A DNA stretch of 64,000 bases from a virus (taxonomy: Duplodnaviria; Heunggongvirae; Uroviricota; Caudoviricetes). Where the stretch lies: the IMG/VR virus record IMGVR_UViG_3300042401_002002; one strand, 5' to 3'. Both the position numbers and the translations under genes were made by a program. The notes beneath the pieces are model-generated. The model saw nothing but the letters and a program-made list of their open reading frames with translations, made no database searches and had not been told where the DNA came from. How positions within the stretch are numbered: position 1 is the stretch's first letter; each line of letters begins with the position of its first letter. Below, piece by piece: positions 9,103 to 60,579 of the stretch.

Positions 9103-9511
9103 CTACATAATTCTTCCATAAATAACTAATTGATTATTATGTAATTTTCTAAGAATGTCACCATCAAATGTTTCGCTAGTTCTAAGAAATAAACACATCA
9201 TATTTGATGCATAATTGAAAGGTAGTACGAGTCTTTTGTCTATTATTAATTTCATCTTGGAACTATTATTAATTTATTTTTATAGTGTCTAATATCAGTT
9301 TTGGTTCCTATTAATGTTGGAATAAAAACTGAACAAAATTTCCAATCTCGGTCATTACTTTTGTTTTTTATTACAAGTTTCATATTTCCTCGTATCTTGA
9401 TAATATTATTAACTTATTGTAAATTCTAAAACCAATTAATCTATCTTCTAGGTAATCTTGATATATTTCAAAGTCAATTTTAAGATGTTGGGTGTGAATG
9501 TCTAATTTCAT
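9103..9511 (-). repeat. MKL micro-ORF array 1 (3 units)
   Basis: 9380-9511 MKLDIHTQHLKIDFEIYQDYLEDRLIGFRIYNKLIILSRYEEI; 9252-9383 MKLVIKNKSNDRDWKFCSVFIPTLIGTKTDIRHYKNKLIIVPR; 9103-9255 MKLIIDKRLVLPFNYASNMMCLFLRTSETFDGDILRKLHNNQLVIYGRIM; ATGA overlaps. Confidence 0.85.
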
Positions 9512-9515
9512 TGTA

Positions 9516-9758
9516 TTATACAATTTTAAGTAATTCAGTTAATGACTTGACCATTATTTTATCAAAATTACCTTCTATTTTATCAGTTATTTGTAAATAT
9601 AACATATCTTTAAAATTATTATCACTAACACATAACTTGATATTGTTATAAATAAATTCAAAACCTTCATCATTTATTTTAAAATCAATTATAACATTAT
9701 ATTCTTTTTGAATAAGTGTAATATAATTATTACAAAAGTTTGTATACATAATTTTCAT
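9516..9758 (-). CDS. hypothetical protein
   Basis: 80 aa; its ATG overlaps the TGA of the preceding micro-ORF. Confidence 0.6.
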   Translation of the reverse strand: MKIMYTNFCNNYITLIQKEYNVIIDFKINDEGFEFIYNNIKLCVSDNNFKDMLYLQITDKIEGNFDKIMVKSLTELLKIV

Positions 9759-9877
9759 CTTCTAACTATTATTAATTTATTGGACCAATATTTGACACTA
9801 CCGCAACTTGCACTAATATTTCTAGGAACATTAATATGAAAACTAGTTAAACTTATTGTTTTTATTTCAAGTTTCAT
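9755..9877 (-). CDS. MKL micro-ORF coupled to the primase stop
   Basis: MKLEIKTISLTSFHINVPRNISASCGSVKYWSNKLIIVRR; ATG overlaps primase TGA. Confidence 0.8.
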   Translation of the reverse strand: MKLEIKTISLTSFHINVPRNISASCGSVKYWSNKLIIVRR

Positions 9878-10803
9878 TTTACATATTTTTTAACTTCATC
9901 AATTCCTTTATGTCTGTGAATTTCATTTAAATCCAACAAAGTTTTTTTACCATCAATAACACCTTCGTCTTTTAAATGAACATTTACAATATACTCAATA
10001 TTAAACAACTTAAGTTGTTCTTCTATGTCAATTGAGTTATTTTTAGCATCAGGGTCAAGTATTAATATTACCGAACTATTGTTTTCAATCAACCTATTCA
10101 TTAGGTGTGGTGTTAACACTTTACCAGCTAAAGGTATTGTATTTATTGGTATTGTGGTTAAATCCGGATAACCTTCAACTAAATAAACTGGGTGGTTCCA
10201 ATTGATATTAGACTCGTTTAAGATAATCTCTTTTTTCTCCACTTTTGATGCATCGTAAGCAGGTTTAATTTCTTTTCTGAATGAACGTGCTATGAAGAAA
10301 TTTAACTTCTTAAAACGGTTATATGAAGGGAATATGATGCGTCCTTTGTACCAACCTTCTAAACAGAATCCAACATTTAAATATCTTAATGTATTATCTG
10401 TTATTTTTCTGTCATTTATAACATAATTATAAGCTTCTAAATGTTCTATGTTTGTTTTATCCATTTGTGTGAATGGAATAAACTCTTTTGGTAAAGTAAC
10501 ATAAGTGTTTTTCTTTTTCTCAACTGTTTCACCTATGTCAATGAGGTTGTAATCCATGTATGCTTTGTAATCTTCTTTTGAAGCATACTTTTTTAACATA
10601 TAATGAACCTTTCCTCTGTATCCACATTTCCAGCAATTGTAAATGTGTTTGTTTGGTTGTAACGTAATACCTAGGTTATGTTTGCCATCAGGTTCTTCAC
10701 CATTTTCTTCAGCACATCTTGGACAATTAAAATCCAATGTGCTTGCGTTTGCGTGAGTATGTTTAGGTTTACCTAGTGTTCTGATTAGTATGTCTAATAA
10801 CAT
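9874..10803 (-). CDS. DNA primase (Zn finger + TOPRIM)
   Basis: CPRC...CWKCG zinc-binding domain, GRIIFP, YLVEGYPD, LILDPD. Confidence 0.9.
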   Translation of the reverse strand: MLLDILIRTLGKPKHTHANASTLDFNCPRCAEENGEEPDGKHNLGITLQPNKHIYNCWKCGYRGKVHYMLKKYASKEDYKAYMDYNLIDIGETVEKKKNTYVTLPKEFIPFTQMDKTNIEHLEAYNYVINDRKITDNTLRYLNVGFCLEGWYKGRIIFPSYNRFKKLNFFIARSFRKEIKPAYDASKVEKKEIILNESNINWNHPVYLVEGYPDLTTIPINTIPLAGKVLTPHLMNRLIENNSSVILILDPDAKNNSIDIEEQLKLFNIEYIVNVHLKDEGVIDGKKTLLDLNEIHRHKGIDEVKKYVK

Positions 10804-10808
10804 GATTT

Positions 10809-11491
10809 TTATCTTATGTAAATTATTAATTCATTAAAAAAATCTTGTTCTTTGAAGAGTTTTAAATAATACTGGTCGTTTATTAAAACATTTTCAAATG
10901 TATCTGTATGGTCTACTATACCGTTTATTTTAAGTTTCATCTTTTTCTAACTAACATTAAATTTAATAAACCACATTCATTGAAATTGCTATAAATGTAA
11001 TTGGTTGAATATTGTTGAGTAATTTCTTTGTACAACCAATATTCTTTATTGAATTCTCGTCTTGTTATTTCAATTCCAAGTTTCATCTTTTTCTAATAAT
11101 TAACATATCTAATAACATATCACTATTAAGATAAATTTATTTATCATCAAATTTATTTATTTTTTTATATATCCAATATTCGCTATCAAACTGTAATGTC
11201 GGATTTATGTCTGTTATAAGTTTCATCTTTTTCTAATAATTAATATATCCATTAACATATTACGTTCATCGTTTAGTAGATAATTGTTTAATTTATTTAT
11301 TGATTTAAACATCCAATATTCGTTATTGAAAGATAAATTTATTCCAGTTTTTTCAATCCAAAGTTTCATCTTTTTCTAATAGTTAACATATCACATTTAT
11401 GTAAACCTATACGTTTTTCTTGAATAAGTTTATAAATAAGATTATATTTATTGAAAGTTAAATCAATATTTACGTTTATACCAAGTTTCAT
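10809..11491 (-). repeat. MKL micro-ORF array 2 (5 units, one with an internal TAA)
   Basis: 11366-11491 MKLGINVNIDLTFNKYNLIYKLIQEKRIGLHKCDMLTIRKR; 11223-11369 MKLWIEKTGINLSFNNEYWMFKSINKLNNYLLNDERNMLMDILIIRKR; 11083-11226 (TAA at codon 30); 10937-11086 MKLGIEITRREFNKEYWLYKEITQQ...LNLMLVRKR; 10809-10940 MKLKINGIVDHTDTF...NELIIYIR. Confidence 0.85.
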
Positions 11492-11492
11492 C

Positions 11493-11783
11493 TCAAACAA
11501 ATAAATTATCTATTACTTCAACTGCTTTTTGGTATAAATCATCTAGTGTCCCATCATTCTGAATGATAATATCTTTTACAATACTACTGTATGTTGTTTC
11601 AGTTTCATGGTTTATGTTGTTTTCATTATCAGGTCTTTCAATTCCTATAATGTAACCATCTAATTCTCTAATTAACGTTTCTTCAGGTTTTAATCTTAAA
11701 TCTTCAAGAATAAATGTTGTTTTGTTATTCTTTTCGATTTCTGCTTTTGTAACTCTTCTAAACCTTTCATCATCAGATACATA
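11493..11783 (-). pseudogene. 3' remnant of a deoxynucleoside monophosphate kinase
   Basis: Start-less frame ...FILEDLRLKPEETLIRELDGYIIGIERPDNENNINHETE...DIIIQNDGTLDDLYQK; the P-loop half is missing; lies directly downstream of tnpB. Confidence 0.7.
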
Positions 11784-11847
11784 TAATAGTAAATTTAGTT
11801 GTAAAAAGATAAAATCTTTATCTCTCTTGCAAAGGTAATTATTTAAA

Positions 11848-15202: not shown

Positions 15203-15397
15203 ATGAATGGAGATAAAAAACCTTATGAAAAATCTTGCTTGATGCTTGATTTTAAAATAGATAACTGGTCTGAATTACTCAATAAAGTTTCTGATGATAA
15301 ACTTTATAATGATGAAACTAATGATTTTGGTAAAGAAACTGAACCACATTGTACAGTTCTTTATGGGTTTAATCAAGGTAAAGAAACTATTAACTAA
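15203..15397 (+). pseudogene. 5' fragment of a 2H-phosphoesterase-like (Acb1/T4 gp57B-like) gene cut by IS607
   Basis: CLMLDF...GKETEPHCTVLYG (single HxT motif), ends just inside the IS left end. Confidence 0.55.
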
Positions 15398-15502
15398 TTT
15401 ATTAACAAAAATTAATATTTACTACTATTTAAATTAAAATATCTTGACTTTATCATTTTATTTTATTACATTTGTAAATCATTAAATTTAACCTAACATA
15501 AA

Positions 15503-16099
15503 ATGAATTACCTTCCTTCTAGGAAAGCTAGTCAAGTCCTTGGGTTACACCCAAATACTCTTAGAAAATATGCAGACAACGGAACAATACATACAATTAA
15601 AAACAACGCTGGTCAAAGACTGTATGACGTTCAGTCATACATCAACTTGTCCTTGTCTGTTGATGAATTCGTGTGTTATTGTAGAGTCTCTTCTAAAAAA
15701 CAACAAGATGATTTACAGCGACAAGTCGCTTACATGTCTTCCTTGTACCCTAACGCAACCATTATTCAAGACATCGGTTCAGGTGTCAACTACAAACGAA
15801 AAGGTCTTCAAACCTTACTGGAACGACTTATCAAAGGAGATAAGTTCACACTTGTGGTTGCCCACAAAGACAGACTTGTTAGGTTCGGATTTGAACTCTT
15901 TGAGTTCCTCTTTAACCAAAACAATGGAAAAATCTTGGTTCTCAACATTAACTCAGGAGACCCTCAGACCGAACTCACAAACGACATTCTCAGAATTCTG
16001 TACGATTACTCGTCCAGCGTTCCAAGACTTAGAGAGTACTATAATAAAATCAAGGAAGATTTCCCTGAATATAACAAAGAAACAGAAGAAAAAACTTGA
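15503..16099 (+). CDS. tnpA: IS607 serine transposase
   Basis: MerR-like HTH (LGLHPNTLRKYA), YCRVSSKKQQDDLQRQ, DIGSG, KDRLVRFGFE. Confidence 0.92.
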   Translation: MNYLPSRKASQVLGLHPNTLRKYADNGTIHTIKNNAGQRLYDVQSYINLSLSVDEFVCYCRVSSKKQQDDLQRQVAYMSSLYPNATIIQDIGSGVNYKRKGLQTLLERLIKGDKFTLVVAHKDRLVRFGFELFEFLFNQNNGKILVLNINSGDPQTELTNDILRILYDYSSSVPRLREYYNKIKEDFPEYNKETEEKT

Positions 16100-17177
16100 T
16101 GTTTGGTCTGGCGTTGCCAGATATGTTTACAACAGAACTGTTGATTATATTTCATTAAAAACCGGTTTCGGTGAACCACTTGAAAAATGGAATCTTGTTT
16201 TTAATGAAATTAACAAACAACTACCTGAATGGTGTAACACAACACCATATCAAATTAAAAAGATGGCTTGTAAAGATGCGTTCAAAGCAAGAACATCTTC
16301 TTTAGCTTTGTTGAAAAACAAAAAGATTAAGTTCTTTAAGTTAAACTATAGAACGAAGTTAAATAAAAACAATATGTATATACCAAAAGATGCAGTTAAA
16401 TCTAAAGGAATATACCATACACTGTTAGGTGAAACTAAATTTAAAGAGAATCTTCCAATCATAGAATATGATTGCAGGTTAATAGAAGAACATGGTGAGT
16501 ACTTCTTATGTGTACCATACAAACAAACTATAGCTAAATTCAACAACCAAGAAGTGCTTTCAAAAGCTGTAGCTATAGACCAAGGAGTGAGAAGTTTTAT
16601 AACTTATTACTCAGAGGATTCAGTTGGTAAGATAGGTAATGAAGACCATGTAATACTATTTAATCTTTGCAAACATATTGATGATTTAATATCAAAAACC
16701 AAGTTAAGTAAAGGGTTTAAAAACCGTAAAAAACGTAAGTCTTATAAAAAAGCAATGAATCGTTTAAAAGCAAAGTTACGCAACTTAGTTGATGAATTAC
16801 ACTGGAAGTCAATTAACTTTTTAGTTAATAATTACAATGTAATAATATGTCCTAACTTTAAAGTTAGCAACATGGTATTAGATGATGTTAAACGAAAGAT
16901 AAGTAGCAAAACAGTACGCAACATGTTAAACTTTAGGTTTTATGTTTTCAAGCAACGCTTGAAACTTAAATGTAAAGAGAGAGGTTGTGTATTGATTGAA
17001 ACAAGTGAAGAGTTTACAAGTCAGATAGCAAGTTGGACAGGTGAGAGAGTTAAAGACATAGGTGGTTCAAAAGAGATTAAAAGCGAAGGTGTTGTAGTTG
17101 ATAGAGATTACAACGGAGCTAGAAACATATTTATCAAGTGTATCCAAGAGAACTTGGATACATCAAAGATAAATTAA
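15540..17177 (+). CDS. tnpB: IS607 TnpB (true start uncertain, overlaps tnpA)
   Basis: AIDQGVRSF (RuvC-I), CPNFKVSNM, SEEFTSQ, DRDYNGARNI (RuvC-III). Confidence 0.88.
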   Translation: MGYTQILLENMQTTEQYIQLKTTLVKDCMTFSHTSTCPCLLMNSCVIVESLLKNNKMIYSDKSLTCLPCTLTQPLFKTSVQVSTTNEKVFKPYWNDLSKEISSHLWLPTKTDLLGSDLNSLSSSLTKTMEKSWFSTLTQETLRPNSQTTFSEFCTITRPAFQDLESTIIKSRKISLNITKKQKKKLDVWSGVARYVYNRTVDYISLKTGFGEPLEKWNLVFNEINKQLPEWCNTTPYQIKKMACKDAFKARTSSLALLKNKKIKFFKLNYRTKLNKNNMYIPKDAVKSKGIYHTLLGETKFKENLPIIEYDCRLIEEHGEYFLCVPYKQTIAKFNNQEVLSKAVAIDQGVRSFITYYSEDSVGKIGNEDHVILFNLCKHIDDLISKTKLSKGFKNRKKRKSYKKAMNRLKAKLRNLVDELHWKSINFLVNNYNVIICPNFKVSNMVLDDVKRKISSKTVRNMLNFRFYVFKQRLKLKCKERGCVLIETSEEFTSQIASWTGERVKDIGGSKEIKSEGVVVDRDYNGARNIFIKCIQENLDTSKIN

Positions 17178-17253
17178 AGATACAAGGTTGATGTACCTTT
17201 ATAATGCAGACTTAACGACTAAGGTTGTTAATAAAAGTTAGCGTTAACGCATC

Positions 17254-17436
17254 GGTGATTTTGCTTTTATTGATGATTTTTCACTTGAAGAATTAAAAGA
17301 TGATTTAAAAGTTGAATCAGAACACACTGATAATATTGCTGAAGTTTTGGAAATAGTTTTGGACCACTTAACTGAAAATAAAGAATATTACGTTAAACTT
17401 AAAGATGCAGGTTTAGCTGATGAATTAGATAAATAA
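17254..17436 (+). pseudogene. 3' fragment of the IS-interrupted gene (VExEHT...DHLxE..YY phage motif, DUF5661-like)
   Basis: Start-less frame GDFAFIDDFSLEELKDDLKVESEHTDNIAEVLEIVLDHLTENKEYYVKLKDAGLADELDK. Confidence 0.6.
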
Positions 17437-19084: not shown

Positions 19085-20905
19085 TTAGTTTCTAAATTTT
19101 TTAGCGTAAAGTTTCATTAAGTCACTAATTACACTACCGTTATCATTTGCGTTATCAATAAAGTCCTCACCATCAATTACTTTGGAGATAACTTTTTGTT
19201 TTTCAGTTATCATGTCATAAACATACTCATCAATTGAATCTTTTACAATTAAAATCCACGCATTTACTTGGTTTGTTTGTCCTATACGGTCCAATCTACC
19301 TATTGCTTGAGATAATATTGCAGGAACATAGGGGATTGTATTAGCTATAATATTGCTACTTTTTGTTAAAGTTATACCAGCATTACCAGCACCAAAACTA
19401 ATAAACAAATTCTGTAATTCATTACTATCTTGTTGGAATTTATCAACTAATTCTTGTCTAATATAAGAATCAGTTTCACCAATATACAACTCACTATTGT
19501 TTTTGAAGTTTTCGTGAATTTTTTTTAATGGGTTTTTATATTCATCAAACAAAATAACCTTTTCTCCCTCATTGTTTAGTTCGGTAATTAAATCAGTTGA
19601 GTAGTCAAGTTTAATTGATGCTGTATACTGTCTTAATTCATTCATAACACCCATTACACTTACTTGTTTTTGGTTTTCTAAACCTTTGATTGATTTATCT
19701 TCTTGCCAGTCAATCTTAGCAAAACCATTTTCAATATTTTGATAGGTTTTAAGTTGTTCATCACTCATTTCAAGGTAAACTTTTTGAATGTTAAGTGGTG
19801 GAAGGTCTTTAAGGTACTCTGATTTTTTTAATCGAATCATTAAACCTTCTAACTTATCATGCAATTTTTCATAATCAGGTGTTGATATTTGAGACCAACC
19901 ACTAAATGATGAACTGTCGTATTTCATACCACACCACTCAGTAAAAAACTTACTTTTGCTTGTGAATTCTAATGGTGATAATAAATGAAGGTTAACAAAT
20001 AAATCAGTTATTGCATTTTGTTGTGGTGTTGCACTAAGTAAAGAAACTTTATTACCTATAATAGGTCTAATATGTTTAAGTAAATTTTTAACCATATTAG
20101 CTTGTGGATTCTTAATTGTATGCGCTTCATCACATATTAACATATCAAACTGTGTTAATCCGTGTTTAGCGAACCTTTCTTTGAAATTGAATGTACCTGA
20201 TTTAAAATAATCGTAATTACAAATAATATATTTAGATTCTGAAATAGAATTTTTATTATTCTTTTTCATTTTAGCTGGTGTTGTTTCTAATACAAAAGCT
20301 TTTTGTTTTGTAAATTTAGTTACTTCATTAACCCAGTTAAATTTTAAGTTATTTGGTACAACAACCAACACTTTTTTAACTGAATCTTCATACATTTCAC
20401 ATTGTAATAATGTAATTAAGGTTTTACCTAAACCTAAGTCAGCAGCAATTAAAATCTTTTCAACCTCATGCGCAAAAATAGCGGCAGCTACTTGATATCT
20501 ATAAGGTGTAATACCTGGATTTAAATATTTACTATAATCAAATTCAATTTTATCTAAAGCTAATAAATCTTTCTTTCTTTGTATAGCTTTAGTTTGTTTT
20601 GCTAATGAAACTTTTAACTCTTCTTGTTTTTTATTATGTTCAGATAGTTTCTTTTTATATTTTTTAATGAAATTGTCACGTTCACCTTCTTGGTGAAAAT
20701 TGAAAAATATTTTATCATCACCTTTGTAAGAAAGGATAACTTGATATAAAGAAAAAATATCAAGAACCCAACATTTTTTTGCTGAATCCCATTCTCTTTT
20801 TTCTAAAGATTTAATTTTTGTTATTAAATCTACATTATATAAAAATGACAAACTATAACTATCTCTTTTGAATTTAGTTATGTCTACTACTAATTTATTT
20901 TCCAC
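19085..20905 (-). CDS. SNF2-family helicase with N-terminal HARP-like domain
   Basis: DLGLGKT, ICDEAH, LSATP, GITLT, QAIGRLDRIGQ; N-terminal F.YN..LI..IK.L..R.WD...K.W. Confidence 0.9.
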   Translation of the reverse strand: MENKLVVDITKFKRDSYSLSFLYNVDLITKIKSLEKREWDSAKKCWVLDIFSLYQVILSYKGDDKIFFNFHQEGERDNFIKKYKKKLSEHNKKQEELKVSLAKQTKAIQRKKDLLALDKIEFDYSKYLNPGITPYRYQVAAAIFAHEVEKILIAADLGLGKTLITLLQCEMYEDSVKKVLVVVPNNLKFNWVNEVTKFTKQKAFVLETTPAKMKKNNKNSISESKYIICNYDYFKSGTFNFKERFAKHGLTQFDMLICDEAHTIKNPQANMVKNLLKHIRPIIGNKVSLLSATPQQNAITDLFVNLHLLSPLEFTSKSKFFTEWCGMKYDSSSFSGWSQISTPDYEKLHDKLEGLMIRLKKSEYLKDLPPLNIQKVYLEMSDEQLKTYQNIENGFAKIDWQEDKSIKGLENQKQVSVMGVMNELRQYTASIKLDYSTDLITELNNEGEKVILFDEYKNPLKKIHENFKNNSELYIGETDSYIRQELVDKFQQDSNELQNLFISFGAGNAGITLTKSSNIIANTIPYVPAILSQAIGRLDRIGQTNQVNAWILIVKDSIDEYVYDMITEKQKVISKVIDGEDFIDNANDNGSVISDLMKLYAKKFRN

Positions 20906-22083: not shown

Positions 22084-22596
22084 TTATTTTGTAAAAATAA
22101 GTAAATAATTTAAACCTAAATTATTTAATGGGATTACATTAGAATAATTACCTATACATAATACATATTCATAACTAATTTTAAACTTGTATTCTTCTTC
22201 TATATAATATTTTAGTTTCATCTTTTAAATATTATTAAATGTCCTGAATGAGTTTTAATAGTTACAACATTGTCTTTTATTTTATTTTCTATCTTTTTAT
22301 AAATCAAACCTTCACTAAATGTAAAGATAGAACTAGTTAAATTTCCAATTTTTAATTTCATCTTTTAAATAATTTAAGGTCGTTTAATAAATAATTGTAA
22401 GATTTTGTTACATCTTCATCTATAATTAAATTATAAATACCACCTTCGGTAAATTTCCAACTTGATATTAAATCAGATATAAGAAGTTTCATCTTTTAAA
22501 TGTTAATAATTTGTTATTTAATGTATTAGCTGATAAAAGTAATTGAAAAATAACCTTATCAAATATTATGTGGTTACTGGCTCTTTTAAGTTTCAT
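22084..22596 (-). repeat. MKL micro-ORF array 3 (4 units)
   Basis: 22489-22596 MKLKRASNHIIFDKVIFQLLLSANTLNNKLLTFKR; 22358-22492 MKLLISDLISSWKFTEGGIY...NDLKLFKR; 22218-22361 MKLKIGNLTSSIFTFSEGLIY...GHLIIFKR; 22084-22221 MKLKYYIEEEY...NYLLIFTK. Confidence 0.88.
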
Positions 22597-27884: not shown

Positions 27885-28729
27885 AATTCTTTTAAAAATT
27901 CTTTAGCAATATTTTCTTCATTACTATATTTTTGTTTATTTGATAATGATGAATGTCCATTACCGTTATTACTAAAATATGCATGTTTTGCATATTTTTT
28001 TAAATCTAAATTTTTAAATGTGTAACCTAAATTAAACATTTCTTTAAACCATTCTGTAGCTGTATCTAATTTACATGACCCAAAAGGTATTACATTTTTA
28101 TTATAAATAACTTCTTTGTTATTTATTTCATTATTTATTAAACAAAACCATTCATTTAATCTACATTCTGGTAATGGAAATGGTTTATTTTTATCAACAA
28201 TATGGTGAGGTCTTGCTGGTTTGTGTATATTAAATGTTTGAATTATTTCACCGTAATTATAATTAAAATCATTGAATTTTTCACTATTACATTTATTTGC
28301 ATAAAACATAGGACAGTTCCAACATTGCCCTATTTCACTAACACCTAAATTGTTTTCAATATTTTCTAGCATGTGTTTTATGATATTGTTTTTATATAAA
28401 ACATCATTATGTGTTATAAATACAAACTTCTTGTCAGACTTTTCAAAACCATATTGGTAACGCATTGATAATCTATATTCTTCATCAATAAAACATCTTT
28501 GTTTGTCAGTTTGGTTAATAAAATTAAAATATTTAGGTTTGTAATGTATTATATTATCAAACTCATTTAATATTAGATTAATATCAAAAACTTCTGGTTG
28601 ATTTGGTTCTTCTTGTAAATAAATTTTATCAATATAGTCACCAGAATGTTTCATTAAAGATTTTAAAGTGACCAAAGTTTGATATGGTTTACCATAAACA
28701 TTTATAATAACATCAACTTTCTGTTCCAT
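27881..28729 (-). CDS. putative GT-A glycosyltransferase
   Basis: DVIINVYGKP, VFITHNDV. Confidence 0.6.
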   Translation of the reverse strand: MEQKVDVIINVYGKPYQTLVTLKSLMKHSGDYIDKIYLQEEPNQPEVFDINLILNEFDNIIHYKPKYFNFINQTDKQRCFIDEEYRLSMRYQYGFEKSDKKFVFITHNDVLYKNNIIKHMLENIENNLGVSEIGQCWNCPMFYANKCNSEKFNDFNYNYGEIIQTFNIHKPARPHHIVDKNKPFPLPECRLNEWFCLINNEINNKEVIYNKNVIPFGSCKLDTATEWFKEMFNLGYTFKNLDLKKYAKHAYFSNNGNGHSSLSNKQKYSNEENIAKEFLKEL

Positions 28730-30270
28730 TACTGAACTCTTAAAATATATTTATTTAGTTTATTTTGGTTTTTTACAACAAAAGGAAATAATCTTTCAAC
28801 CCAATCTTGTTGTAACATTTCTATTTTTTTGTTGTCATCATTTCTAGTTTGTGATTCTAAATGGTAACAAACACTATTCATGTCGCAAATGTTTTCAAAT
28901 CCATGTAAAATAGTTTGTAGACCTAGTTCAACATCTTCAAAACATGAAATATAATTTTCATTAAACATTCCTAGTTTTTGAAAAGTCTTTAATCTAGTCA
29001 TAACAAAGGCGGCAGTGTTACCACAAACTAATTTATCTTTTGTGTTGTAATTATAGTGTGTTTGTATATTATCGTGTGATACTTGTAAGTTATTATTTTT
29101 ATCAATAAACATAATCTGACCACCATGTTGAATGGTACCATCACCAAAATGTAATCTAGCTCCAATGGTACCTAAATTATGTTTGTTGTTAAATTTATTT
29201 ACGAATCTAGTTAAACAATCATTTAACATAATTATGTCATTATTACAAAATAAAACATAATCAGTGTTTTTATTAACATAATTTTTTACAACATCATTAT
29301 TAATTTTAGCAAAGTTGTAATAATTATATTTAATAACTTCAATGTTGTTGTAAGGGTGTTTTTCAATCAGTTTTTCTGTTTCAGATAAACATTCTTCATT
29401 TGAACCTGTATCCGCTATGTAAATTTTAAATTTATCTTTTGGATATAATGTATTATTTATGATGCTATCAACACATTGTGTAATTAAATCAATTTTATCC
29501 TTAGTTGGAATAATAATTGATATAAAACCATGTTTTTTTAGTTTAATATTATCATTTTTTTCATACAAAACTTCTATTTTTTCTGAAATAGGTAGTAGTT
29601 GTTTGTATTTTTCAACAAATTGTTGTCTATTAACTTCAAATTCTTCATTTGGTTGTCCTACTGATTCATGAGTGATATCAAAACTAAAAGTAACACCAAT
29701 TTTAACATCTTCTAAGTAATTTGGTATAGTAAAAGAATGGTCATAAAAATGAAAACCTTTAAATTCTTCATCAAATTTATGTTTGATTAAATTTTTATTA
29801 ACAGCAAAAAACAAACCATCAACTGTGCAAACATTTATTAGTTCGTTATTGTTTGTACTAACTGAATATTTAGAAAGATATTTTTTTGTGTGTTCAGGTG
29901 CATGATAAACCTCACCAACCATTGTTTGGTGCATTCTTTCCCAGAAAACACCACTTTCACTCATGTATGTAGAACCAGCTTTACCTATGATACCGTATTC
30001 AGGGTTTGAATTGAAATCTTTTAAAAGATTAATACCCCAATTTTTAGATAACTTAATATCATTGTGACAAAAAATAACTAAATCAGTTTTTGATTCCTCT
30101 AAACCTTTGTTGTATAATTCAGATAAAGAATATTGATTATAATTCTCGTAACATATAATATCTAAACCATTATTAAGTAAACCTGACGATAATCTTAAGT
30201 GATTAATAAAATTTTGGTTATATTCTGAATTTTTGTGTGAAGAAAAAACTACTGTCAATTTTGAAAACAT
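28729..30270 (-). CDS. two-domain GT2 glycosyltransferase
   Basis: N domain FCHNDI/FHFYD; C domain SIIIPTKD, FCNND, FEDVE, HLESQTR. Confidence 0.85.
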   Translation of the reverse strand: MFSKLTVVFSSHKNSEYNQNFINHLRLSSGLLNNGLDIICYENYNQYSLSELYNKGLEESKTDLVIFCHNDIKLSKNWGINLLKDFNSNPEYGIIGKAGSTYMSESGVFWERMHQTMVGEVYHAPEHTKKYLSKYSVSTNNNELINVCTVDGLFFAVNKNLIKHKFDEEFKGFHFYDHSFTIPNYLEDVKIGVTFSFDITHESVGQPNEEFEVNRQQFVEKYKQLLPISEKIEVLYEKNDNIKLKKHGFISIIIPTKDKIDLITQCVDSIINNTLYPKDKFKIYIADTGSNEECLSETEKLIEKHPYNNIEVIKYNYYNFAKINNDVVKNYVNKNTDYVLFCNNDIIMLNDCLTRFVNKFNNKHNLGTIGARLHFGDGTIQHGGQIMFIDKNNNLQVSHDNIQTHYNYNTKDKLVCGNTAAFVMTRLKTFQKLGMFNENYISCFEDVELGLQTILHGFENICDMNSVCYHLESQTRNDDNKKIEMLQQDWVERLFPFVVKNQNKLNKYILRVQ

Positions 30271-30362: not shown

Positions 30363-30545
30363 CTATTCAGCTTTACCTAAAGCAGCGATAGCGATACGAA
30401 TATCTTGAGCTGATGATTTTACATCTTGTAAACCAACACGTACTCTAGTTTTTGCAGCTTTGTTACCTGCGTCAATTTTTGTAGCGTCAGCTTTCAATGC
30501 TACTACAGATGTCTCTAATCCTTCGATTTGTTCTAAAATTGTCAT
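30363..30545 (-). CDS. histone H1-like (Hc1-type) DNA-binding protein
   Basis: GNKAAKTRVRVGLQDVK motif as in Bacteroidota Hc1-like proteins; start taken at MTILEQ. Confidence 0.7.
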   Translation of the reverse strand: MTILEQIEGLETSVVALKADATKIDAGNKAAKTRVRVGLQDVKSSAQDIRIAIAALGKAE

Positions 30546-30624: not shown

Positions 30625-31048
30625 TTAGTAACTATTGATTATTAACGTGTTATACCTACTAAATATTTTTAATTCATTTAAATGAATATCTCTAATAACA
30701 ACATATCTTAAAAAATCTTTATTTATTATGGTTGATAAACCTGAATCAGTAAAGGACTGATAAAATTGGTTGTTTATTTTAAGTTTCATCTTTTATATAT
30801 TAAAATTTCATTTATAAAAGGGTATGATAATTGTGGATTACCACCTAGATTAAACATAATAACTATTTCAGTATTTTTAAAGTATGTATTTTTTGAAAAG
30901 AATAATTGTAATTTCATCTTTTATATAACCTTAATTTGTTGTTAAAATGTAAATGAAACATCGCATTAGTTTTACCACTTAAAACATAATATATACCATG
31001 ATTAATGAAATAATCAAATTGATTTGCTGTGTATATTTTAAGTTTCAT
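30625..31048 (-). repeat. MKL micro-ORF array 4 (3 units)
   Basis: 30914-31048 MKLKIYTANQFDYFINHGIYYVLSGKTNAMFHLHFNNKLRLYKR; 30786-30917 MKLQLFFSK...NEILIYKR; 30625-30789 MKLKINNQFY...NELKIFSRYNTLIINSY. Confidence 0.88.
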
Positions 31049-31469: not shown

Positions 31470-32002
31470 TTATCTTGGATAAATAATTAGTGAGTTTTGA
31501 AAGACTTTGAAATAATTGGAGCTTGGACTTGTTTTACCATCCTTTAAATATAAACCACTACGGTAAGTAAATAAACTAGTAAGTTTAGTTCTTATATGTA
31601 ATCTCATTATCTTGGATATAAAGTTATTTCGTTATAATTTATTAATATTTCTGTATTCGGTAAACCTAAAAGTAACCCACCAGTTACAGTGTTTTGTAGT
31701 TTAACGGCTCTGTAATTAATTACTAGTCTCATCTTCGGTAAATTATTAGTTTATTTTTTTATAAACACCAATATGACCATCATCAAAGTGTATTCTCTTA
31801 TCTGTTAAATATTCACCTAAAACATACCACGTAAATTGATTAATCCTGATTGTTGTTTTAAGTTTCATCTTTTGTAAATTCTAAGGTTATTTAAATATAC
31901 AGTTTTTGCTTTGTTGATTTTTTCAGCAAAATCACCCACTAAAATATTAAATATACTGTAACATTCTAATTTTTCAATAGGTTTGGATATTTTAAGTTTC
32001 AT
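31470..32002 (-). repeat. MKL micro-ORF array 5 (4 units, one frameshifted)
   Basis: 31865-32002 MKLKISKPIEK...NNLRIYKR; 31729-31868 (A7 frameshift before NKLIIYRR); 31607-31732 MRLVINYR...NEITLYPR; 31470-31607 MRLHIRTK...NSLIIYPR. Confidence 0.85.
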
Positions 32003-32268: not shown

Positions 32269-32513
32269 CTTTTATAAATTCTTTAAGTTTTATTTAATAA
32301 ATATATTTAAACAGTTTTTACTCAGTAAAATATCTATAATATCTAACTGTAAGTAGGTTAATTCAAAATCTGAATCTTCAGACCAATGTTCTATATTAAG
32401 TTTCATCTTTTATACTGTAATATTATGTTATTATATTTTAAATCAATGATAATTTTGATAATATCTGGATACATAAATTCAATATCAGACCATGAGTACT
32501 GTTAAAGTTTCAT
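32265..32513 (-). pseudogene. two degenerate MKL micro-ORF units
   Basis: 32403-32513 MKL*QYSWSDIEF...NNIILQYKR; 32265-32406 MKLNIEHWSED... stops early with its C-terminal motif out of frame. Confidence 0.7.
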
Positions 32514-32851: not shown

Positions 32852-33041
32852 CTTTGTAAATGTATTTCTTGTATAAATAGACTAATAAACTTAGTATTGC
32901 TGCTAGTATTAATAGTGCAGGTATAATACCTAGAGGTAATAAAATTATAAACCAATTATAGGTTATTATTTTGGTTAGTTTTAAATAAATCAACATTATT
33001 TGTAGTTGACCTATTAGGATGTATAAGTAGTTGCGTGTCAT
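32823..33041 (-). CDS. small 2-TM membrane protein
   Basis: LIYLKLTKIITYNWFIILLP motif typical of small phage TM proteins. Confidence 0.65.
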   Translation of the reverse strand: MTRNYLYILIGQLQIMLIYLKLTKIITYNWFIILLPLGIIPALLILAAILSLLVYLYKKYIYKDASKLNNTN

Positions 33042-37313: not shown

Positions 37314-37321
37314 CAAAGATA
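37314..37321 (-). promoter_or_regulatory. Bacteroidota -7 promoter box heading array 7
   Basis: TATCTTTG (TAnnTTTG) 23 nt upstream of the first unit. Confidence 0.6.
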
Positions 37322-37377
37322 GTTTTTATTTTTGAGAAATAAAAATGTCCGTTAATTATTTTAACGAACAAGGGTTT

Positions 37378-38859
37378 TTAGATTATGTTTTGTTGTTTTA
37401 GAAATTCGGTTAACTTTTTTTCGACATCTTCGTTATATCGAATACGAAGTAAGGGTATGTTGTTGGTTAGGCAATATTCGTTTTTGATTTGGTCACGTTG
37501 TTTAATAGTGTTGAATGTTTCTTCACCACCGAAATAATTAATAGGTTGAAAGTGTTGTTTACCATCATATTCTATTAAAATATTGTGTTCAGTTAAATAA
37601 AAATCAAACGGTAATTCTCTTTTATGAACACATCCAAAAAATTTCTTTTCTATTTCAAAATTTATATTATGTTCAGTTAAAATCTCACTTATCCTAGTTT
37701 CACCTTTTGATGCCACACATTTTGAACAGCCACCACTTGCACTTAAATGTGTATTTGCTGAAATTTCAAAATCACCGTGTTCTTCGCATGTAATAATTAC
37801 TTTATTTTTTGAAAGTGTATAATTAGTTTTACTATAATTATATTTATTACCATGTATTTCTTTAGCTTTTTGAATAAATTCATCGTTTGTTAACCTATTC
37901 CCTTCATCTGCGCACATTTTACAACCCCCACCTAGTAGGTGAGTATTTGGAATTTGTTCAAATTCACCATGAACTTTACATTTTATGGTAACTTTTTGTT
38001 TATTATGTTTGTAATCTACTAAACTATAGTCGTATTTATCACCATGTATTTTTTTGGCTTTTTCTATAAAACGTTCAGTATTGTTGTAATGTGTATTACA
38101 TTTTTTACAACCTATTTTTTCATTTAAAAAACTACTTTTTAAAATCATGAAAGGACCATGTTCTTTGCAAATGATTTTAATTTTATCTTTTTTAGTACCA
38201 TGTACAGTTTCATCGTAAATATATTTATCACCATGAACTTCCATTGCTCTTTTAATAAATTCTTCACCAGTAATTGATAGTTTTTCTCTGGAACAACGTT
38301 CACAATCACATAATAGGTGACTTGATGGTGTTGTTTTAAATAACCCGTGTTTATCACATCTTAATTCTATGTGACTTTTCATGTTAATAAAATTTATATT
38401 GTCATAATTAAATTTTTCACCATGAACTTCTTTAGCTTTTTGAATAAATTCTTCTTTAGTTATTGTATGATTTGAACATTTTTTACAACCTGTTGAGTTT
38501 ATATGGTTGGTAGGTCTTTGTTCAAAATATTCACCACATGAATTACATTTTATTTTAATTTTAGTATCAGCGTTTATATATTCGCTTTCACTGTAATCGT
38601 ATTTATCACCATGTTTTTCTTTAAAAACTTCCTTAAAATTGTCTTTATTAACACTATATTTTGGTCCACAACTTGGACATGTTAAATTTTTACGTATCTT
38701 AGATGCTTTATTTAAAGTAAATGGTCCGTGAACTTTACATGTTATAGTAACAGGGTCGTTATTACTGATATATTTGGTGAGTTCGTAAGTATAATTTTCA
38801 CCATGTATTTTCTTGCATTGTTCAATATACTGTTCGTTGGTTAAGTTTTTAGCGTTCAT
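37378..38859 (-). CDS. DUF723-repeat homing-type endonuclease with C-terminal PD-(D/E)xK/Vsr-like nuclease
   Basis: Six repeats of FI.KA..VHG.KYDYS...I.C..HG.F...H...GC..C; SKGE..I, LPFDFYL, IEYDGKQHF. Confidence 0.85.
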   Translation of the reverse strand: MNAKNLTNEQYIEQCKKIHGENYTYELTKYISNNDPVTITCKVHGPFTLNKASKIRKNLTCPSCGPKYSVNKDNFKEVFKEKHGDKYDYSESEYINADTKIKIKCNSCGEYFEQRPTNHINSTGCKKCSNHTITKEEFIQKAKEVHGEKFNYDNINFINMKSHIELRCDKHGLFKTTPSSHLLCDCERCSREKLSITGEEFIKRAMEVHGDKYIYDETVHGTKKDKIKIICKEHGPFMILKSSFLNEKIGCKKCNTHYNNTERFIEKAKKIHGDKYDYSLVDYKHNKQKVTIKCKVHGEFEQIPNTHLLGGGCKMCADEGNRLTNDEFIQKAKEIHGNKYNYSKTNYTLSKNKVIITCEEHGDFEISANTHLSASGGCSKCVASKGETRISEILTEHNINFEIEKKFFGCVHKRELPFDFYLTEHNILIEYDGKQHFQPINYFGGEETFNTIKQRDQIKNEYCLTNNIPLLRIRYNEDVEKKLTEFLKQQNII

Positions 38860-38918: not shown

Positions 38919-40406
38919 TTAATTCAAGTTAATACCTTGAAGTGGATGTGCTGATAACGCTTGTGACATTATTTCATCTTCATTATATTTTTGTTCAAAT
39001 TTCTCTTCTTCTTTAACTATTTTTTCATTAAAGATAGAGTTTGGGTCATCTGATTGTATTTCTAACGTATCTTTATCAAAAGTAACATTTTCCCACATCA
39101 TACCATTACCTGAAATTCTTGATTTACAAATCATGAAATTATTTAGATTATTCTTTTTCATTTCAGGTGTTGCAGCACAACCTAAAACCACTGCCGCTTT
39201 TTTACCTAACATAGCTGAACCGTATATATCAGCTAAGGTTAATACAGGCGCAATGTTAGCATTTTTACCTGCTTGGCAAGCTGTGAAAATAGCTATTTGA
39301 TAATATTCAGCCATATTGTCCATAGCTCTTACAACTAAAGATTGCGAAGTAAATTCGGAATTTGTAGGTATTTCCCAGTCAAGGCAATCGTAATAGTCTA
39401 AGTGTAAGGCAGTTACCTTTTTTCCAGTCTTGATTTCGGTATCTTCTATTAACTTTTTTATTTGACTTAACTTACTACCATCAGGCATTCTGGTTATTGT
39501 TAAAGTTCCGGTGTTTGGATTTTCTTTAACTATTTTTAGTCTTTTTTGAGCCAATTCTTTGTTAGCAACCAATTGTGATATAGGAATACCAACCAAGTGT
39601 GAAAAAATTTTGCGTCTTACATCATCACGTTTACCTTCTAACAAAACAAATAAAATATTTTCACCAGCTTTGTATTGATTAGCCGCTATTACCGACATTA
39701 GACTCGTTTTTCCTTGTCCCTGACCACTGAGGCAGACAAAAATTTCACCAAATGAAATTCCGCCATTTGTACCAAACGCATTATCAATAAAATTAATACC
39801 TGTTTTAACTGCTCTTCTACTAGTTTCTGAAAACACTTCGTCTTCATTATCGAATATATCAATAGCGTCTTGTTTAACCTTACCAATGTTTGATACTTTT
39901 TTAATTCTATCAATAACATCATCTAACAAGTAATCACCAACATTTCCATTATTTAATAAAGATTCTCCATGAACTAAAGCTTTTAGTAATTCTTTTTGTT
40001 TGATGAAGTTTAATGATTGGTCTTTGATTAATTGTGTATCATTATTGATTGTGCCATTTTTTCTATCAATAGTAATCTTTCTAATTTGTTGTAATCTTGC
40101 AACAATCTCAGCTCTATCTACATCGTTCTGTACCTCAGTATTAACAATGCTGAAAATATTTTCAATATTTGGAGGTAATTGGTATTTATCATAATAATTC
40201 TTGATTTGAATCATTATCATCCTTAAACTTTTATCCTCAAAATAATTACTATCAATAGAATGTATTATTTCATCAAAAAACGTATTATTAGTTTTTAGAT
40301 TAATATTATTAGGTGTTAAAATCTCATTTAATAACTTAACTTGATATAATTGACCAAGTTTACTAAATGTGGGTAAATTGTCTTCAGCGTCATTCAACTG
40401 ACTCAT
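38919..40406 (-). CDS. replicative DnaB / T4 gp41-like helicase
   Basis: Walker A GQGQGKT, LLEG, HLDYYD, TACQ, CKSR. Confidence 0.9.
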   Translation of the reverse strand: MSQLNDAEDNLPTFSKLGQLYQVKLLNEILTPNNINLKTNNTFFDEIIHSIDSNYFEDKSLRMIMIQIKNYYDKYQLPPNIENIFSIVNTEVQNDVDRAEIVARLQQIRKITIDRKNGTINNDTQLIKDQSLNFIKQKELLKALVHGESLLNNGNVGDYLLDDVIDRIKKVSNIGKVKQDAIDIFDNEDEVFSETSRRAVKTGINFIDNAFGTNGGISFGEIFVCLSGQGQGKTSLMSVIAANQYKAGENILFVLLEGKRDDVRRKIFSHLVGIPISQLVANKELAQKRLKIVKENPNTGTLTITRMPDGSKLSQIKKLIEDTEIKTGKKVTALHLDYYDCLDWEIPTNSEFTSQSLVVRAMDNMAEYYQIAIFTACQAGKNANIAPVLTLADIYGSAMLGKKAAVVLGCAATPEMKKNNLNNFMICKSRISGNGMMWENVTFDKDTLEIQSDDPNSIFNEKIVKEEEKFEQKYNEDEIMSQALSAHPLQGINLN

Positions 40407-55893: not shown

Positions 55894-56374
55894 ATGAAAT
55901 TAGACTTTATATTTAGAAATGAAAAAATTTGTTCAGATTTTTTTCGTTCAGTTCTTTTTAAACTAAACTATCCAAAAGTGACTTATACTTGTATTTATAG
56001 TTATTACAAATCTGATGAAATAACTGAAAATAATATGAAAAATAATCAAATTTATATATTTTCAAGATGAAATTACAAATAGCTAATTCTGAACTAAAAA
56101 TCGAAAGATTTCAACTAACCAAACAAGAATCTAGACAAACTTATTCTTACTTACATTTTAGTAAAGATATCAATCAAATGACTTTATTAATTAATAATCA
56201 CTTACATATATTTACAAGATGAGATTAAGAATACATCTCAGCGAACAACCTATTTGTTCAGACATTTATAAATCAGAAATTTCTGGGAATTTTTGCATAT
56301 TAACTAAACATAAAATTAGTGGTAGTGAAATCATCAACTTTATTATCATTGGAAATTTACACACATTCAACTGA
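55894..56374 (+). repeat. MKL micro-ORF array 8 (3 units, plus strand)
   Basis: 55894-56070 MKLDFIFRNEKICSD...NNQIYIFSR; 56067-56222 MKLQIANSELK...NNHLHIFTR; 56219-56374 MRLRIHLSEQPICSD...GNLHTFN. Confidence 0.8.
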
Positions 56375-57936: not shown

Positions 57937-58045
57937 AATACTGTGTTTTTAATAAATAGGGTTATAAATATTTTAAAAATAAATAAAATAATGTTTGGTT
58001 TTAATAAATTAATTTGTATATTGCAACTACTAAACAGAAATTTTT

Positions 58046-58324
58046 ATGTTCATTGATTTTAAACAACTAGCTACTAAATGTGGTGAATATTGCGAACTAG
58101 ACCCAACTGGAAATGTTGCTGAAACACTAAATGAATGTGTTCAATATCTTTTATTAAGTTCTGAATCCGAATTTAACGATGAAACATTAGATGATGATGA
58201 ATTACCTTTAAATACAGTTTTTATTAAAAATACACTTATCAGAGAAAAAGTATTGGTTTTTGGTAATAACACACCTGTTTCACCTGTTAATAAAAAAGCT
58301 CCAACCGCTAAGAAGAAAGCTTAA
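58046..58324 (+). CDS. hypothetical protein
   Basis: 92 aa. Confidence 0.6.
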   Translation: MFIDFKQLATKCGEYCELDPTGNVAETLNECVQYLLLSSESEFNDETLDDDELPLNTVFIKNTLIREKVLVFGNNTPVSPVNKKAPTAKKKA

Positions 58325-58356
58325 AAACTAATTTTTTTAATTTAGATTTAACCATA

Positions 58357-59157
58357 ATGGCTAAACGCAAACCAACACCTTCTTATATTAGAGAAGAACA
58401 GGATAATTTAATAACAACATCTAAAGATAAAAGGTTTAAAGAACCGACAGCTAGAGATATTATATCAATTGACGATATACTCAAAACCCCAATTACACTT
58501 TCTACGGAACAAGAACAACTTATTAGATTAGTTGATAAATCCATAGTGACTGTTTCGGAGGGTGGTCCTGGTTCGGGAAAATCCTTTACTGCGATATATA
58601 TAGCACTATTAAAATTAGCCAAAGGTGAAGTTGAAAGAATAATTTTATCTAAACCATTAGTACAAAGTGCATCGGATGAAATTGGTTTCCTAAAAGGAAC
58701 ACTAGACGAAAAAGTAAAACCTTTTTTGGAGTCATATTTTGATATTTTTGAAACTTTTCTAACCAAACAACAAATTGAATCTTTAATAAAATCAGGATTT
58801 ATTAAATTTGAACAAATTTCGTTTTTACGTGGAAGAACATTTAAGAACGCAATGATAATTTTAGACGAGGGACAATCAGCCCGAATTGACGGTTTATTTT
58901 TAATTTCATCGAGGGTAGGTTTAGGTTCAAAATTATTAATTTTGGGTGATAGATTCCAAGCAGATATCAAACCTTCTGAGCAGAAATTTACAGATTTTAT
59001 TTCTATTCTTGAAAAGATTCCAGAAGCTAGTGTTTTTAAATTTTCAGATTCACATAACTATAGAAACCCTTTCCTTATAGAGTTAACTAGATTATATAAT
59101 GAGTACATGGAAAAACAATTAGAGCCAAAAACAAAAAAACTACTTTTGAAATCATGA
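58357..59157 (+). CDS. phoH: PhoH-like ATPase
   Basis: GGPGSGKS, IGFLKG, FLRGRTF, ILDEGQ, GDRFQAD. Confidence 0.92.
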   Translation: MAKRKPTPSYIREEQDNLITTSKDKRFKEPTARDIISIDDILKTPITLSTEQEQLIRLVDKSIVTVSEGGPGSGKSFTAIYIALLKLAKGEVERIILSKPLVQSASDEIGFLKGTLDEKVKPFLESYFDIFETFLTKQQIESLIKSGFIKFEQISFLRGRTFKNAMIILDEGQSARIDGLFLISSRVGLGSKLLILGDRFQADIKPSEQKFTDFISILEKIPEASVFKFSDSHNYRNPFLIELTRLYNEYMEKQLEPKTKKLLLKS

Positions 59158-59486
59158 TTTTAATTAACCCAGCATACATAAGTTCTATTGAAATTACCCA
59201 ACCTTTTTTACTTAGTGAATTAGAATTTATTAATGGTGTGTACCATAAAGTATACGAAAATGAAATTGGACAAATAATTAAAAAACCGTTATATCATTTA
59301 GACATTGATAATATAATAAAAGGCACTATTACTGAAGATGAAAAAGTTTACGGCAAACCTAAAGTGATTATTTATTATAATAATGATAAATATATAACTG
59401 TTGATGGTTTTAAAACAAAAAATGAGTTTGATAATTATTTGGAAAAACTAAAACAACATACCACTAATTTTTTATCAGTTATTTAA
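59154..59486 (+). CDS. hypothetical protein
   Basis: 110 aa, overlaps the phoH stop. Confidence 0.6.
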   Translation: MILINPAYISSIEITQPFLLSELEFINGVYHKVYENEIGQIIKKPLYHLDIDNIIKGTITEDEKVYGKPKVIIYYNNDKYITVDGFKTKNEFDNYLEKLKQHTTNFLSVI

Positions 59487-59559
59487 AAAATAATCAACAA
59501 ATTATTTGGTTATATAAAAACTTTTTATTAGATTGCAACATAGTAATTCAGAGAAACAA

Positions 59560-60123
59560 ATGGCAAAGGTAGTAACAATTTTTATAGATGATATTTTAAG
59601 GAATTTTTCTGGTGCGTTCAAAGAATGTTACAATGAGCAATACCCAAAAAATACTTTTTCAACTTTTGATATTTTTAATCTTAATAATTTTTTTCAGTCA
59701 AGTGAAGTTTTTAATGATTTTTTTAGCTTAAATTTTTTTACAATCCTTAGCGCATCCGAGACTAAATATCAAGGGTGCGTTAATGATTATTCTAACACAA
59801 AACATCTACTTAACTCAGAAGGATATAAAATTAGATTAGTATCAACAGTTAGTGACACTAGACATATTTTTGCAAACTACTTCTTCTTATCTAAAAACTT
59901 TATTTCAGGTGATGAAGTTGTAATGTTGCAACCAGAAGAAGATATTAGAACAGCTTACAACCAAAATTATATAGTTACAACAAATTATAATTTAATAGGT
60001 GACAATGTTATTTTGCTTGAAACTGAATATAACATAGAACATGCACATAAATTTAAACATGTTATTAAAAAAGTTTCAGATATACCTAAAATAGTTTTTA
60101 AAGATAGTGAAAATAATGAATAA
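59560..60123 (+). CDS. degenerate HAD 5'-nucleotidase-like protein
   Basis: IFIDDILRNF and ETEYN; start taken at MAKVVT. Confidence 0.45.
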   Translation: MAKVVTIFIDDILRNFSGAFKECYNEQYPKNTFSTFDIFNLNNFFQSSEVFNDFFSLNFFTILSASETKYQGCVNDYSNTKHLLNSEGYKIRLVSTVSDTRHIFANYFFLSKNFISGDEVVMLQPEEDIRTAYNQNYIVTTNYNLIGDNVILLETEYNIEHAHKFKHVIKKVSDIPKIVFKDSENNE

Positions 60124-60457
60124 CATAGATAATTTTATAAATATTCTTGAACAAACAAAAAAAGATTGTTTAAGTATTAGTAATGAATTAATCAAAGCTG
60201 ATTATTTAATTCAACTAGACAATATTGAAGTATGTGATGAAAATATTAATTCATATAACACATACTTTAAAGACAAAGTTAGTTATTTTGGTACACAATT
60301 TAATGGAAAAACAATTCCTTATTTTTGTTATATCAATAACACCGAATTTACACAGATTTTAACTATTGAAGATATTAATAAACTAGAACCTAATATTGAA
60401 ATAGAAAAAGTTTATATTGAAGAATTAGAGTTTGCTTTTAATAAATTAACATTGTAA
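60107..60457 (+). CDS. hypothetical protein
   Basis: 116 aa. Confidence 0.55.
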   Translation: MKIMNNIDNFINILEQTKKDCLSISNELIKADYLIQLDNIEVCDENINSYNTYFKDKVSYFGTQFNGKTIPYFCYINNTEFTQILTIEDINKLEPNIEIEKVYIEELEFAFNKLTL

Positions 60458-60579
60458 TGAAACTTAAAATAACATATTACGATAGACAATATTCTTTAAT
60501 ATTAACTTGTACAGTAGATACCAGCAATAAACTTGAACTAAAGTACAACAAAAACAGACTTTTTATCTTTAATAGATAA
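60457..60579 (+). CDS. solitary MKL micro-ORF
   Basis: MKLKITYYDRQYSLILTCTVDTSNKLELKYNKNRLFIFNR; TAATG overlap with the upstream gene. Confidence 0.78.
   Translation: MKLKITYYDRQYSLILTCTVDTSNKLELKYNKNRLFIFNR

Follow-up and report, generated by a model that had tools for sequence, protein, structure and literature searches.

A lineage-restricted family of chained micro-genes in an uncultured jumbo phage

Tandem multigene families are familiar from large eukaryotic DNA viruses, for example the MGF110, MGF360 and MGF505 families of African swine fever virus (ASFV) and the gene accordion formed by amplification of K3L in poxviruses. Here we describe a family of very small genes that are arranged in tandem in a phage. 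It lies in a stretch of 64,000 nt (the window, in whose coordinates all positions are given) of the IMG/VR record IMGVR_UViG_3300042401_002002, which is assigned to the Caudoviricetes. The family resembles those of the eukaryotic viruses in the tandem duplication and divergence of accessory genes, in the change of copy number between strains and in a presumed role in host interaction. The ASFV and poxvirus proteins are however much larger, several of them have a known host target, and their genes are not known to have the overlapping-junction architecture described below.

Two systems in phages are comparable. In T4-type phages, the ORFan cassettes of the hyperplastic regions are shuffled through early-promoter stem-loop (PeSL) repeats (Arbiol et al., 2010, PMC2839356; PMC4122927). 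In both cases small genes of obscure function, apparently dispensable, lie between conserved replication or structural modules, and insertions, deletions and replacements occur among close relatives at a short repeated flanking motif. In the present family this is seen in a 131-nt indel with a 15-nt junction, and in differences of whole units from the related contig L001. A PeSL is an intergenic promoter with a stem-loop terminator and separates mutually unrelated ORFans, whereas here the repeated motif is coding and the genes form one family. There is no early promoter with a stem-loop terminator for each unit: successive units share an ATGA overlap, and the arrays contain no terminator-like site.

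The closest published precedent is Bacillus phage G, whose approximately 35 copies of a zinc ribbon were called unprecedented in 2021; the suggestion was that they act as transcription factors or as structural DNA-binding proteins (Iyer et al., PMC7824862). There too, one small domain occurs in tens of copies in a single large phage, and its function is guessed. The present family differs in that it is an orphan family without metal ligands, has at least 51 copies within 64 kb, has its copies chained by ATGA overlaps, and varies in content between near-identical strains.

The literature on tandem micro-gene arrays in phages was searched, and no description of the family was found in it. A previous reading of the window, made from the sequence only, had held that no system with this architecture has been described. 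This is too strong, because the expansions reported for phage G (PMC7824862) and the cassette shuffling of T4-type phages (PMC2839356) are known kinds of system. As a phage genome feature the family is of a known kind, but it is a new and very large orphan family, and its junction architecture is unusual. By the shared profile of its members, by the selection acting on them, and by its restriction to one lineage with variation in copy number, it is a tandem lineage-specific multigene family of a large phage.

Census, coding test and selection

On the minus strand the repeated motif is visible simply by reading positions 9000-11600. Units were listed from every ATG-started frame beginning M-[KR]-[LI], and a profile was then built with 38 seed units. 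The profile scores 51 open reading frames (ORFs) in the window, comprising 50 intact units and one (11137-11226) in which a premature stop shortens the protein to 29 amino acids (aa), and it matches none of the long ORFs. There are also three remnants (35885-35902, 32403-32474 and 32502-32513), and the family is distributed over 11 clusters. Unit lengths are 29-58 aa with a median of 43, and the 51 units sum to 6,627 nt, or about 10% of the window. An ATGA overlap of 4 nt leads into a following unit in 34 of the 51, and coupling of the same type joins several units to the primase gene or to other ORFs. The sequence-only reading had named 11 clusters, every one of which carries family members. 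Its figures of about 53 units, about 48 of them intact and 34-58 aa long, are replaced by those given here. A profile search, which it had proposed as a check, recovered the 51 units.

The start motif MKLxI is nearly constant, with M1 in all 51 units, K2 in 47, L3 in 50 and I5 in 39. For the end motif, the 42 units with a final R or K were counted; of these, 36 have N at position -8, 40 have L or I at -6, 29 have I at -4, 34 have Y or F at -3, and 38 have R at -1. These counts confirm the ends as they had been described (M-K/R-L-x-I at the start and N-x-L/I-x-I/T-Y/F-x-R at the end), and a base-by-base check of the junction, which had been written as (A)AAGATGAAA(C/T)T, confirms AAGATGAAA(C/T)T. 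The middle of the protein has features that had been overlooked, namely that the residue near position 13 is aromatic and those at about 19-22 are hydrophobic. Most of the proteins are basic (median pI 9.5, range 4.4-11.5; median net charge +3). They are high in Ile, Leu, Tyr and Phe and low in Ala, Gly, Pro and Cys (Cys 0.8%), and Ser and Thr are not enriched.

Coding was tested independently of ORFs, using intervals set solely by consecutive junction motifs 90-190 nt apart (n = 38). The spacing is 3n-1, which places the next TGA in frame, in 32 of the 38 intervals, and 30 of these 32 have no internal stop. The two shifted frames of the coding strand are never open across the intervals, and when the interiors are shuffled only 3.1% remain open. 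In the other five frames of the 51 units, stops occur at 6-15% per codon.

Contigs from related phages were reached through database proteins that match the unit profile. Three of them (L124-L126) are 100% identical to the window; they were recovered from different samples, among them a metagenome of Lake Mendota. Identity to the window is 95-96% for the flanks of L001/L002 and of L128, 85-94% for L127, and 70-89% for L169. The samples are from freshwater lakes, with one set labelled marine. Contigs bearing the units of the window reach 265 and 309 kb, and the phage is therefore a jumbo phage.

Selection was measured as dN/dS (omega) in 10 orthologous pairs of units, comparing the window with L001, L127 and L128. 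The first 5 and last 8 codons were taken as the ends and the remainder as the centre. The centres have 56 synonymous changes in 162 sites and 56 non-synonymous changes in 708 sites (omega 0.18, p = 6e-14), and the ends have 15 in 68 and 16 in 295 respectively (omega 0.22, p = 2e-4); dS is 0.26 at the ends compared to 0.46 in the centres. Omega is 0.09 for the primase and 0.06 for a 432-aa gene, both of them core genes nearby, so that the units have values 2-5 times higher. Judged by these substitutions, the units are real genes under purifying selection, and their centres change at a few times the rate of core genes, which is the behaviour of accessory genes. The earlier claim that near-universal openness implies selection for translation is thus backed by both the frame test and dN/dS, and these together with the profile bear out its wider proposal that the units are micro-genes of one family, translated and selected, whose ends are constant. 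A dN/dS near 1, which was to have spoken against coding, was not observed in the 10 pairs, though the value is higher against L169 (see below).

The centres had also been described as hypervariable, forming a diversified loop. In the sense of ongoing diversification this does not hold, because the centres are under purifying selection between orthologues. They are better described, on the evidence of these alignments, as old, diverged and, for most units, individually conserved, and the centres of paralogues differ through age. A diversity-generating retroelement or active hypermutation was considered and rejected: the centres of orthologues are conserved, and there is no near-identical pair of template and variable units, the most similar pairs within the window having about 68-69% nucleotide identity.

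When all units were scanned against Pfam, PHROGs and NCBIfam, the only matches were scattered single ones, none with E better than 0.01. Among 1.84 billion cluster representatives the profile picked out 9 proteins, each of which belongs to this phage or a close relative, and a search of 5.8 billion proteins gave 3 matches, again to this phage or near relatives. The database sources name none of the matched proteins, and the possibility raised earlier, that this is an already annotated family, was not borne out. One orphan microprotein family that is absent from family libraries takes up about 10% of the window, in a phage genome of 265-309 kb. Clearly different further members were found on two short contigs (L044 and L056) of the marine-labelled assembly. 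No longer, fused forms of the unit were found, which is weak evidence.

Other searches were equally negative. The junction pattern gave a single match in IMG/VR, which is not a family member, and none of its 40 matches in GTDB representatives carries a family member. There was no match in IMG/VR using the exonuclease encoded beside the largest array, nor in GenBank phages using blastn with the largest array itself. Metagenome matches to the junction pattern were rejected, being mostly hot-spring CRISPR arrays that have AGATGAAAC by chance. Five of these chance matches (L053, L033, L008, L046 and L015) are arrays from hot-spring metagenomes in which the repeat ends in ...GGTTCAGATGAAAC.

Arrays, turnover and junction DNA

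The arrays, the single units and the putative control region before the largest array are as follows.

9103-9511, minus strand: array of three units (9380-9511, 9252-9383 and 9103-9255), the closing genes of the primase operon, with orthologues in L127 and L169.
9755-9877, minus strand: single unit; its ATG overlaps the TGA of the primase gene and its TGA overlaps the start of an 80-aa ORF outside the family (9516-9758), with gaps of -4 on both sides.
10809-11491, minus strand: array of five units, immediately upstream of the primase gene (9874-10803).
22084-22596, minus strand: array of four units, from the gene map.
30625-31048, minus strand: array of three units, with a 60-aa Hc1 histone-like gene (30363-30545) downstream.
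31470-32002, minus strand: array of four units, from the profile and the gene map.
32290-32513, minus strand: one intact unit (32290-32406) and two decayed remnants (32403-32474 and 32502-32513), from the frame listing and the profile.
33038-34115, minus strand: array of nine units with ATGA overlaps throughout, immediately downstream of the exonuclease gene (34120-35184).
35188-37290, minus strand: largest array, with 17 intact units and a 5-codon stub (35885-35902), immediately upstream of the exonuclease gene.
37314-37370, minus strand: terminator-like hairpin (37370-37346) after an HNH gene, then TATCTTTG (37321-37314); consensus matches only.
55894-56374, plus strand: three longer units (58, 51 and 51 aa), after a 754-aa structural gene.
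60457-60579, plus strand: single unit preceded by a 113-aa ORF, whose stop codon has one base in common with the ATG of the unit.

The arrays lie in operons of replication-type genes (primase, exonuclease and helicases), on the same strand. The TATCTTTG sequence is a consensus match to the Bacteroidota-type -7 promoter motif, and 23 nt separate it from the opening unit of the largest array downstream. The largest array has the hairpin and this motif ahead of it and no terminator-like site within it, so that one operon seems to run from this array (37290-35188) through the exonuclease gene to the array 34115-33038.

The content of the arrays differs between relatives. L128 lacks exactly the unit 22358-22492, by an indel of 131 nt, which is one period; the two alignments on either side have 15 nt of the junction in common, and identity in the flanks is 95%. 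L001 has two extra units after 36920-37051, and lacks the window unit 36661-36804. In L127 the array upstream of the primase gene is missing, and downstream of that gene there is a different set of six units and then decayed ones. In L169 the array upstream of the primase gene has three units rather than five, in another order, and the array at 22 kb has three rather than four. A patch of about 300 nt (approximately 9048-9347 in the window and 10037-10336 in L169) is 100% identical in the two sequences, while its flanks are 63-85% identical. It spans most of the units 9252-9383 and 9103-9255, and this pattern looks like a recent recombination between diverged relatives. We propose that arrays differ between near-identical phages as a result of recombination at the junction.

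Within the window, the best match of a unit is an adjacent unit in 8 cases, and lies in its own array in 17 cases compared to 8 expected by chance. The largest array contains two recent adjacent duplicates (35518-35628 with 35625-35735, and 36262-36399 with 36396-36524). The centres of most units are little more alike than shuffled centres. As far as these comparisons go, they point to an old expansion of the family together with some recent tandem duplication.

The fixed ends combine constraints of two kinds. In the logo of the junction, conservation is lowest at the wobble positions of the N, I and Y/F codons, which argues that NxLxI[YF] is constrained at the protein level; the motif is also retained in units that are last in their array. 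The terminal Arg is encoded by AGA within AGATGA, and is found in 30 of the 34 units that have a following unit, as against 8 of the 17 others. The codons used for Leu3 are CTT in 63% of units and CTN in 71%, compared to 11.7% CTT and 65% TTA among the Leu codons of long genes; CTT and CTA together account for about 70% in the units and about 21% in the long genes. By these counts, part of the units' fixed ends is a nucleotide-level signal and not a protein feature. The constant scaffold of the sequence-only reading thus holds for NxLxI[YF], but not for the terminal Arg, which is tied to the following unit, nor for the codon bias at Leu3.

Neither the junction nor the MKL start is common to the long genes of the phage, so the junction motif is specific to the family and not a general start signal. 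None of 36 long genes has a Shine-Dalgarno-like sequence upstream, and their leaders are A/T-rich. A scan for sigma-70 promoters found fewer sites than in shuffled sequences and was uninformative. TTG-N19-TAnnTTTG motifs occur in several intergenic regions (for example at 11837, 23925, 42816, 48911 and 53537), and TAnnTTTG promoter-like motifs at a few junctions. Expression as a polyprotein by -1 frameshifting was rejected because the junctions inspected are not X XXY YYZ slippery sites (by inspection, without a count).

Structure models and competing explanations

AlphaFold2 was used to predict the structures of two different units, with family alignments of 49 and 73 members. Both models have a strand at residues 4-7, two helices, and a strand near the C-terminus, with pLDDT values of 68 and 72. 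There are only two strands in each model, and the end strands must therefore pair with each other. Although the confidence of the models is moderate, this agrees with the earlier guess that the two ends pair as strands. Structure prediction for single units, which had been suggested as a check, thus gave the same topology twice; it gave no match to a known fold. No match was found for either model by fold search (Foldseek against the PDB, ESM Atlas, BFVD and the wide VIA-align search), by an ESM Atlas feature search, or by a sequence profile search of the PDB with the units.

Two known folds were compared with the models. An all-beta fold like that of AbrB or MazE, which was prompted by the C-terminal motif, is unsupported by Pfam and by AlphaFold2. 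The LysM domain has the arrangement strand-helix-helix-strand in approximately 44 aa, and is thus like the units in size and in the order of its secondary structure elements. However, there is no Pfam LysM (PF01476) match even at E = 1 and no structural match, and the likeness is one of element order only.

The explanation that we consider probable is that the units are a lineage-specific, massively expanded family of mostly basic proteins of about 43 residues, in an uncultured jumbo phage of freshwater lakes, with translation by reinitiation, a two-strand clasp, recombination at junctions and a host-directed function. Ribosomes would most likely translate the units serially: at each AGATGA junction they would terminate at the TGA and begin again at the ATG. 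Each protein is predicted to be a small strand-helix-helix-strand domain, in which the N-terminal MKLxI strand and the C-terminal NxLxI[YF] strand pair and so close the domain; the surface between the strands would be specific to each paralogue and maintained by selection. The junction DNA probably has two roles, as the stop and restart signal for the next unit and as a short homology at which recombination could add, delete or swap whole units. The outcome would be a repertoire of dispensable host-directed binders, for host take-over or counter-defence, with one target per unit. A host-directed function is suggested by the fast turnover, by values of omega above those of core genes, and by the need for many distinct surfaces that are individually conserved.

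Several observations weigh against this explanation. Transcription and translation of the units are predicted from the sequence. The AlphaFold2 confidence is only moderate and ESMFold2 gave pLDDT below 50 in at least one run, and the proteins may be disordered when alone. In the searches described above, no homologue, fold match or conserved partner gene indicates a function. Pairs of units compared with the more distant L169 pool to an omega of 0.46. They are mixed, with one pair identical, some well conserved and two nearly neutral, which may mean that some units are drifting or that these pairs are not true orthologues. Finally, the excess of CTT at Leu3 persists in units that are first in their array, and so coupling to an upstream unit fails to explain it.

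The family offers a clean natural system for studying how tiny proteins are expressed from long overlapping chains in a phage whose genes have no Shine-Dalgarno sites, how a coding junction can serve as a recombination module, and how large phages use such repertoires. A bolder form of the same explanation, to which we give a rather low probability, is that the repertoire consists of binders built on a minimal two-strand clasp, each neutralising a different host defence or take-over target, with the junction as a built-in recombination site for trading units among co-infecting phages. The arrays would then be a modular, exchangeable counter-defence library.

There is a modest chance that the units are instead small basic proteins associated with nucleic acid or the replisome, which coat or organise the phage DNA or tune replication proteins. 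Their median pI of 9.5 and median net charge of +3 would suit this role, the arrays directly adjoin genes for primase, exonuclease and helicases, to which they are coupled, and the Hc1 histone-like gene lies beside one array. The closest published precedent, the approximately 35-copy zinc ribbon of phage G, was itself proposed to consist of DNA-binding proteins or transcription factors (PMC7824862). On the other hand, the pI spans 4.4-11.5, and the library and fold searches matched no known DNA-binding fold or family. Generic coating of DNA would have no need for at least 50 distinct and individually conserved paralogues, and would not tolerate the gain and loss of units between near-identical phages.

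Somewhat less probable is the suggestion that the units are selfish mini-cassettes, in which the junction drives its own duplication and transfer between co-infecting phages and the peptide is of little or no benefit. Such a parasite would not be expected to have paralogue-specific centres under purifying selection (omega 0.18), nor frames that are open in 50 of about 54 units, and the arrays have no associated recombinase or nuclease, the HNH genes in their vicinity being of the ordinary free-standing type. Nevertheless the nucleotide conservation of the junction exceeds what the protein needs, indels are precise to the unit, a mosaic patch is common to diverged relatives, some pairs of units are near-neutral and decayed units are present, all of which would fit a selfish element.

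Libraries of precursors to ribosomally synthesised and post-translationally modified peptides (RiPPs), such as those of the prochlorosins and cyanobactins, combine fixed flanks with a variable core. The units have this arrangement in many tandem genes that look like precursors, and their fixed ends might be recognition sequences around a variable core. We regard this as very unlikely: the fixed part at the N-terminus is 5 residues long, far below known leaders, Cys is at 0.8% and Ser and Thr are not enriched, the models put both ends in one folded unit, and the 19 larger window proteins scanned against PHROGs or Pfam include no match to a modifying enzyme.

Non-coding repeats with incidental frames, either repeat-spacer (CRISPR-like) or regulatory (a promoter array), would account for a conserved junction every 105-177 nt with unrelated DNA between and for the TAnnTTTG motifs at a few junctions, but are refuted at the sequence level by the frame and openness test and by the synonymous excess, as well as by the free wobble positions within the conserved motif, the restriction of strong conservation to about 12 nt per repeat, and the lack of any Rfam match in the window.

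Neighbouring genes and host

PHROG matches identify the DNA primase (9874-10803), the exonuclease (34120-35184, PHROG 107), a DnaB-like helicase (38919-40406), an SNF2-type helicase (19085-20905) and an HNH endonuclease (37378-38859). The 754-aa protein matches PHROG 2426, and its best GenBank relatives, at about 31% identity, are from Ackermannviridae-like phages and Shewanella myoviruses. The helicase has no close cultured relative. The 60-aa ORF at 30363-30545 (minus strand) matches Pfam Hc1 (histone H1-like) with E = 2e-13, a possible hint of a Bacteroidota host. Starts without Shine-Dalgarno sequences, the TTG-N19-TAnnTTTG motifs and the Hc1 gene would all fit a host in the Bacteroidota, without proving it.

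The segment 21035-21933, between the SNF2 helicase gene and the array at 22 kb, contains a 157-aa ORF in the window and differs among relatives: L128 has a gene for a 286-aa HNH endonuclease there, and in L169 the array lies immediately next to the helicase gene. A TnpB-type gene (OrfB_IS605/Cas12f-like TNB, ORF 15540-17177) lies between two stretches, at 15386-17254 in the window. In L127 and L169 these stretches are parts of a single intact gene of 375-377 aa, similar to Acb1/DUF5661/ART-PolyVal, and an insertion sequence therefore appears to have split this gene here. A 513-aa protein (28729-30270, minus strand) has two family-2 glycosyltransferase domains, and L128 has further glycosyltransferase genes, of families 11 and 17, near the array at 22 kb.

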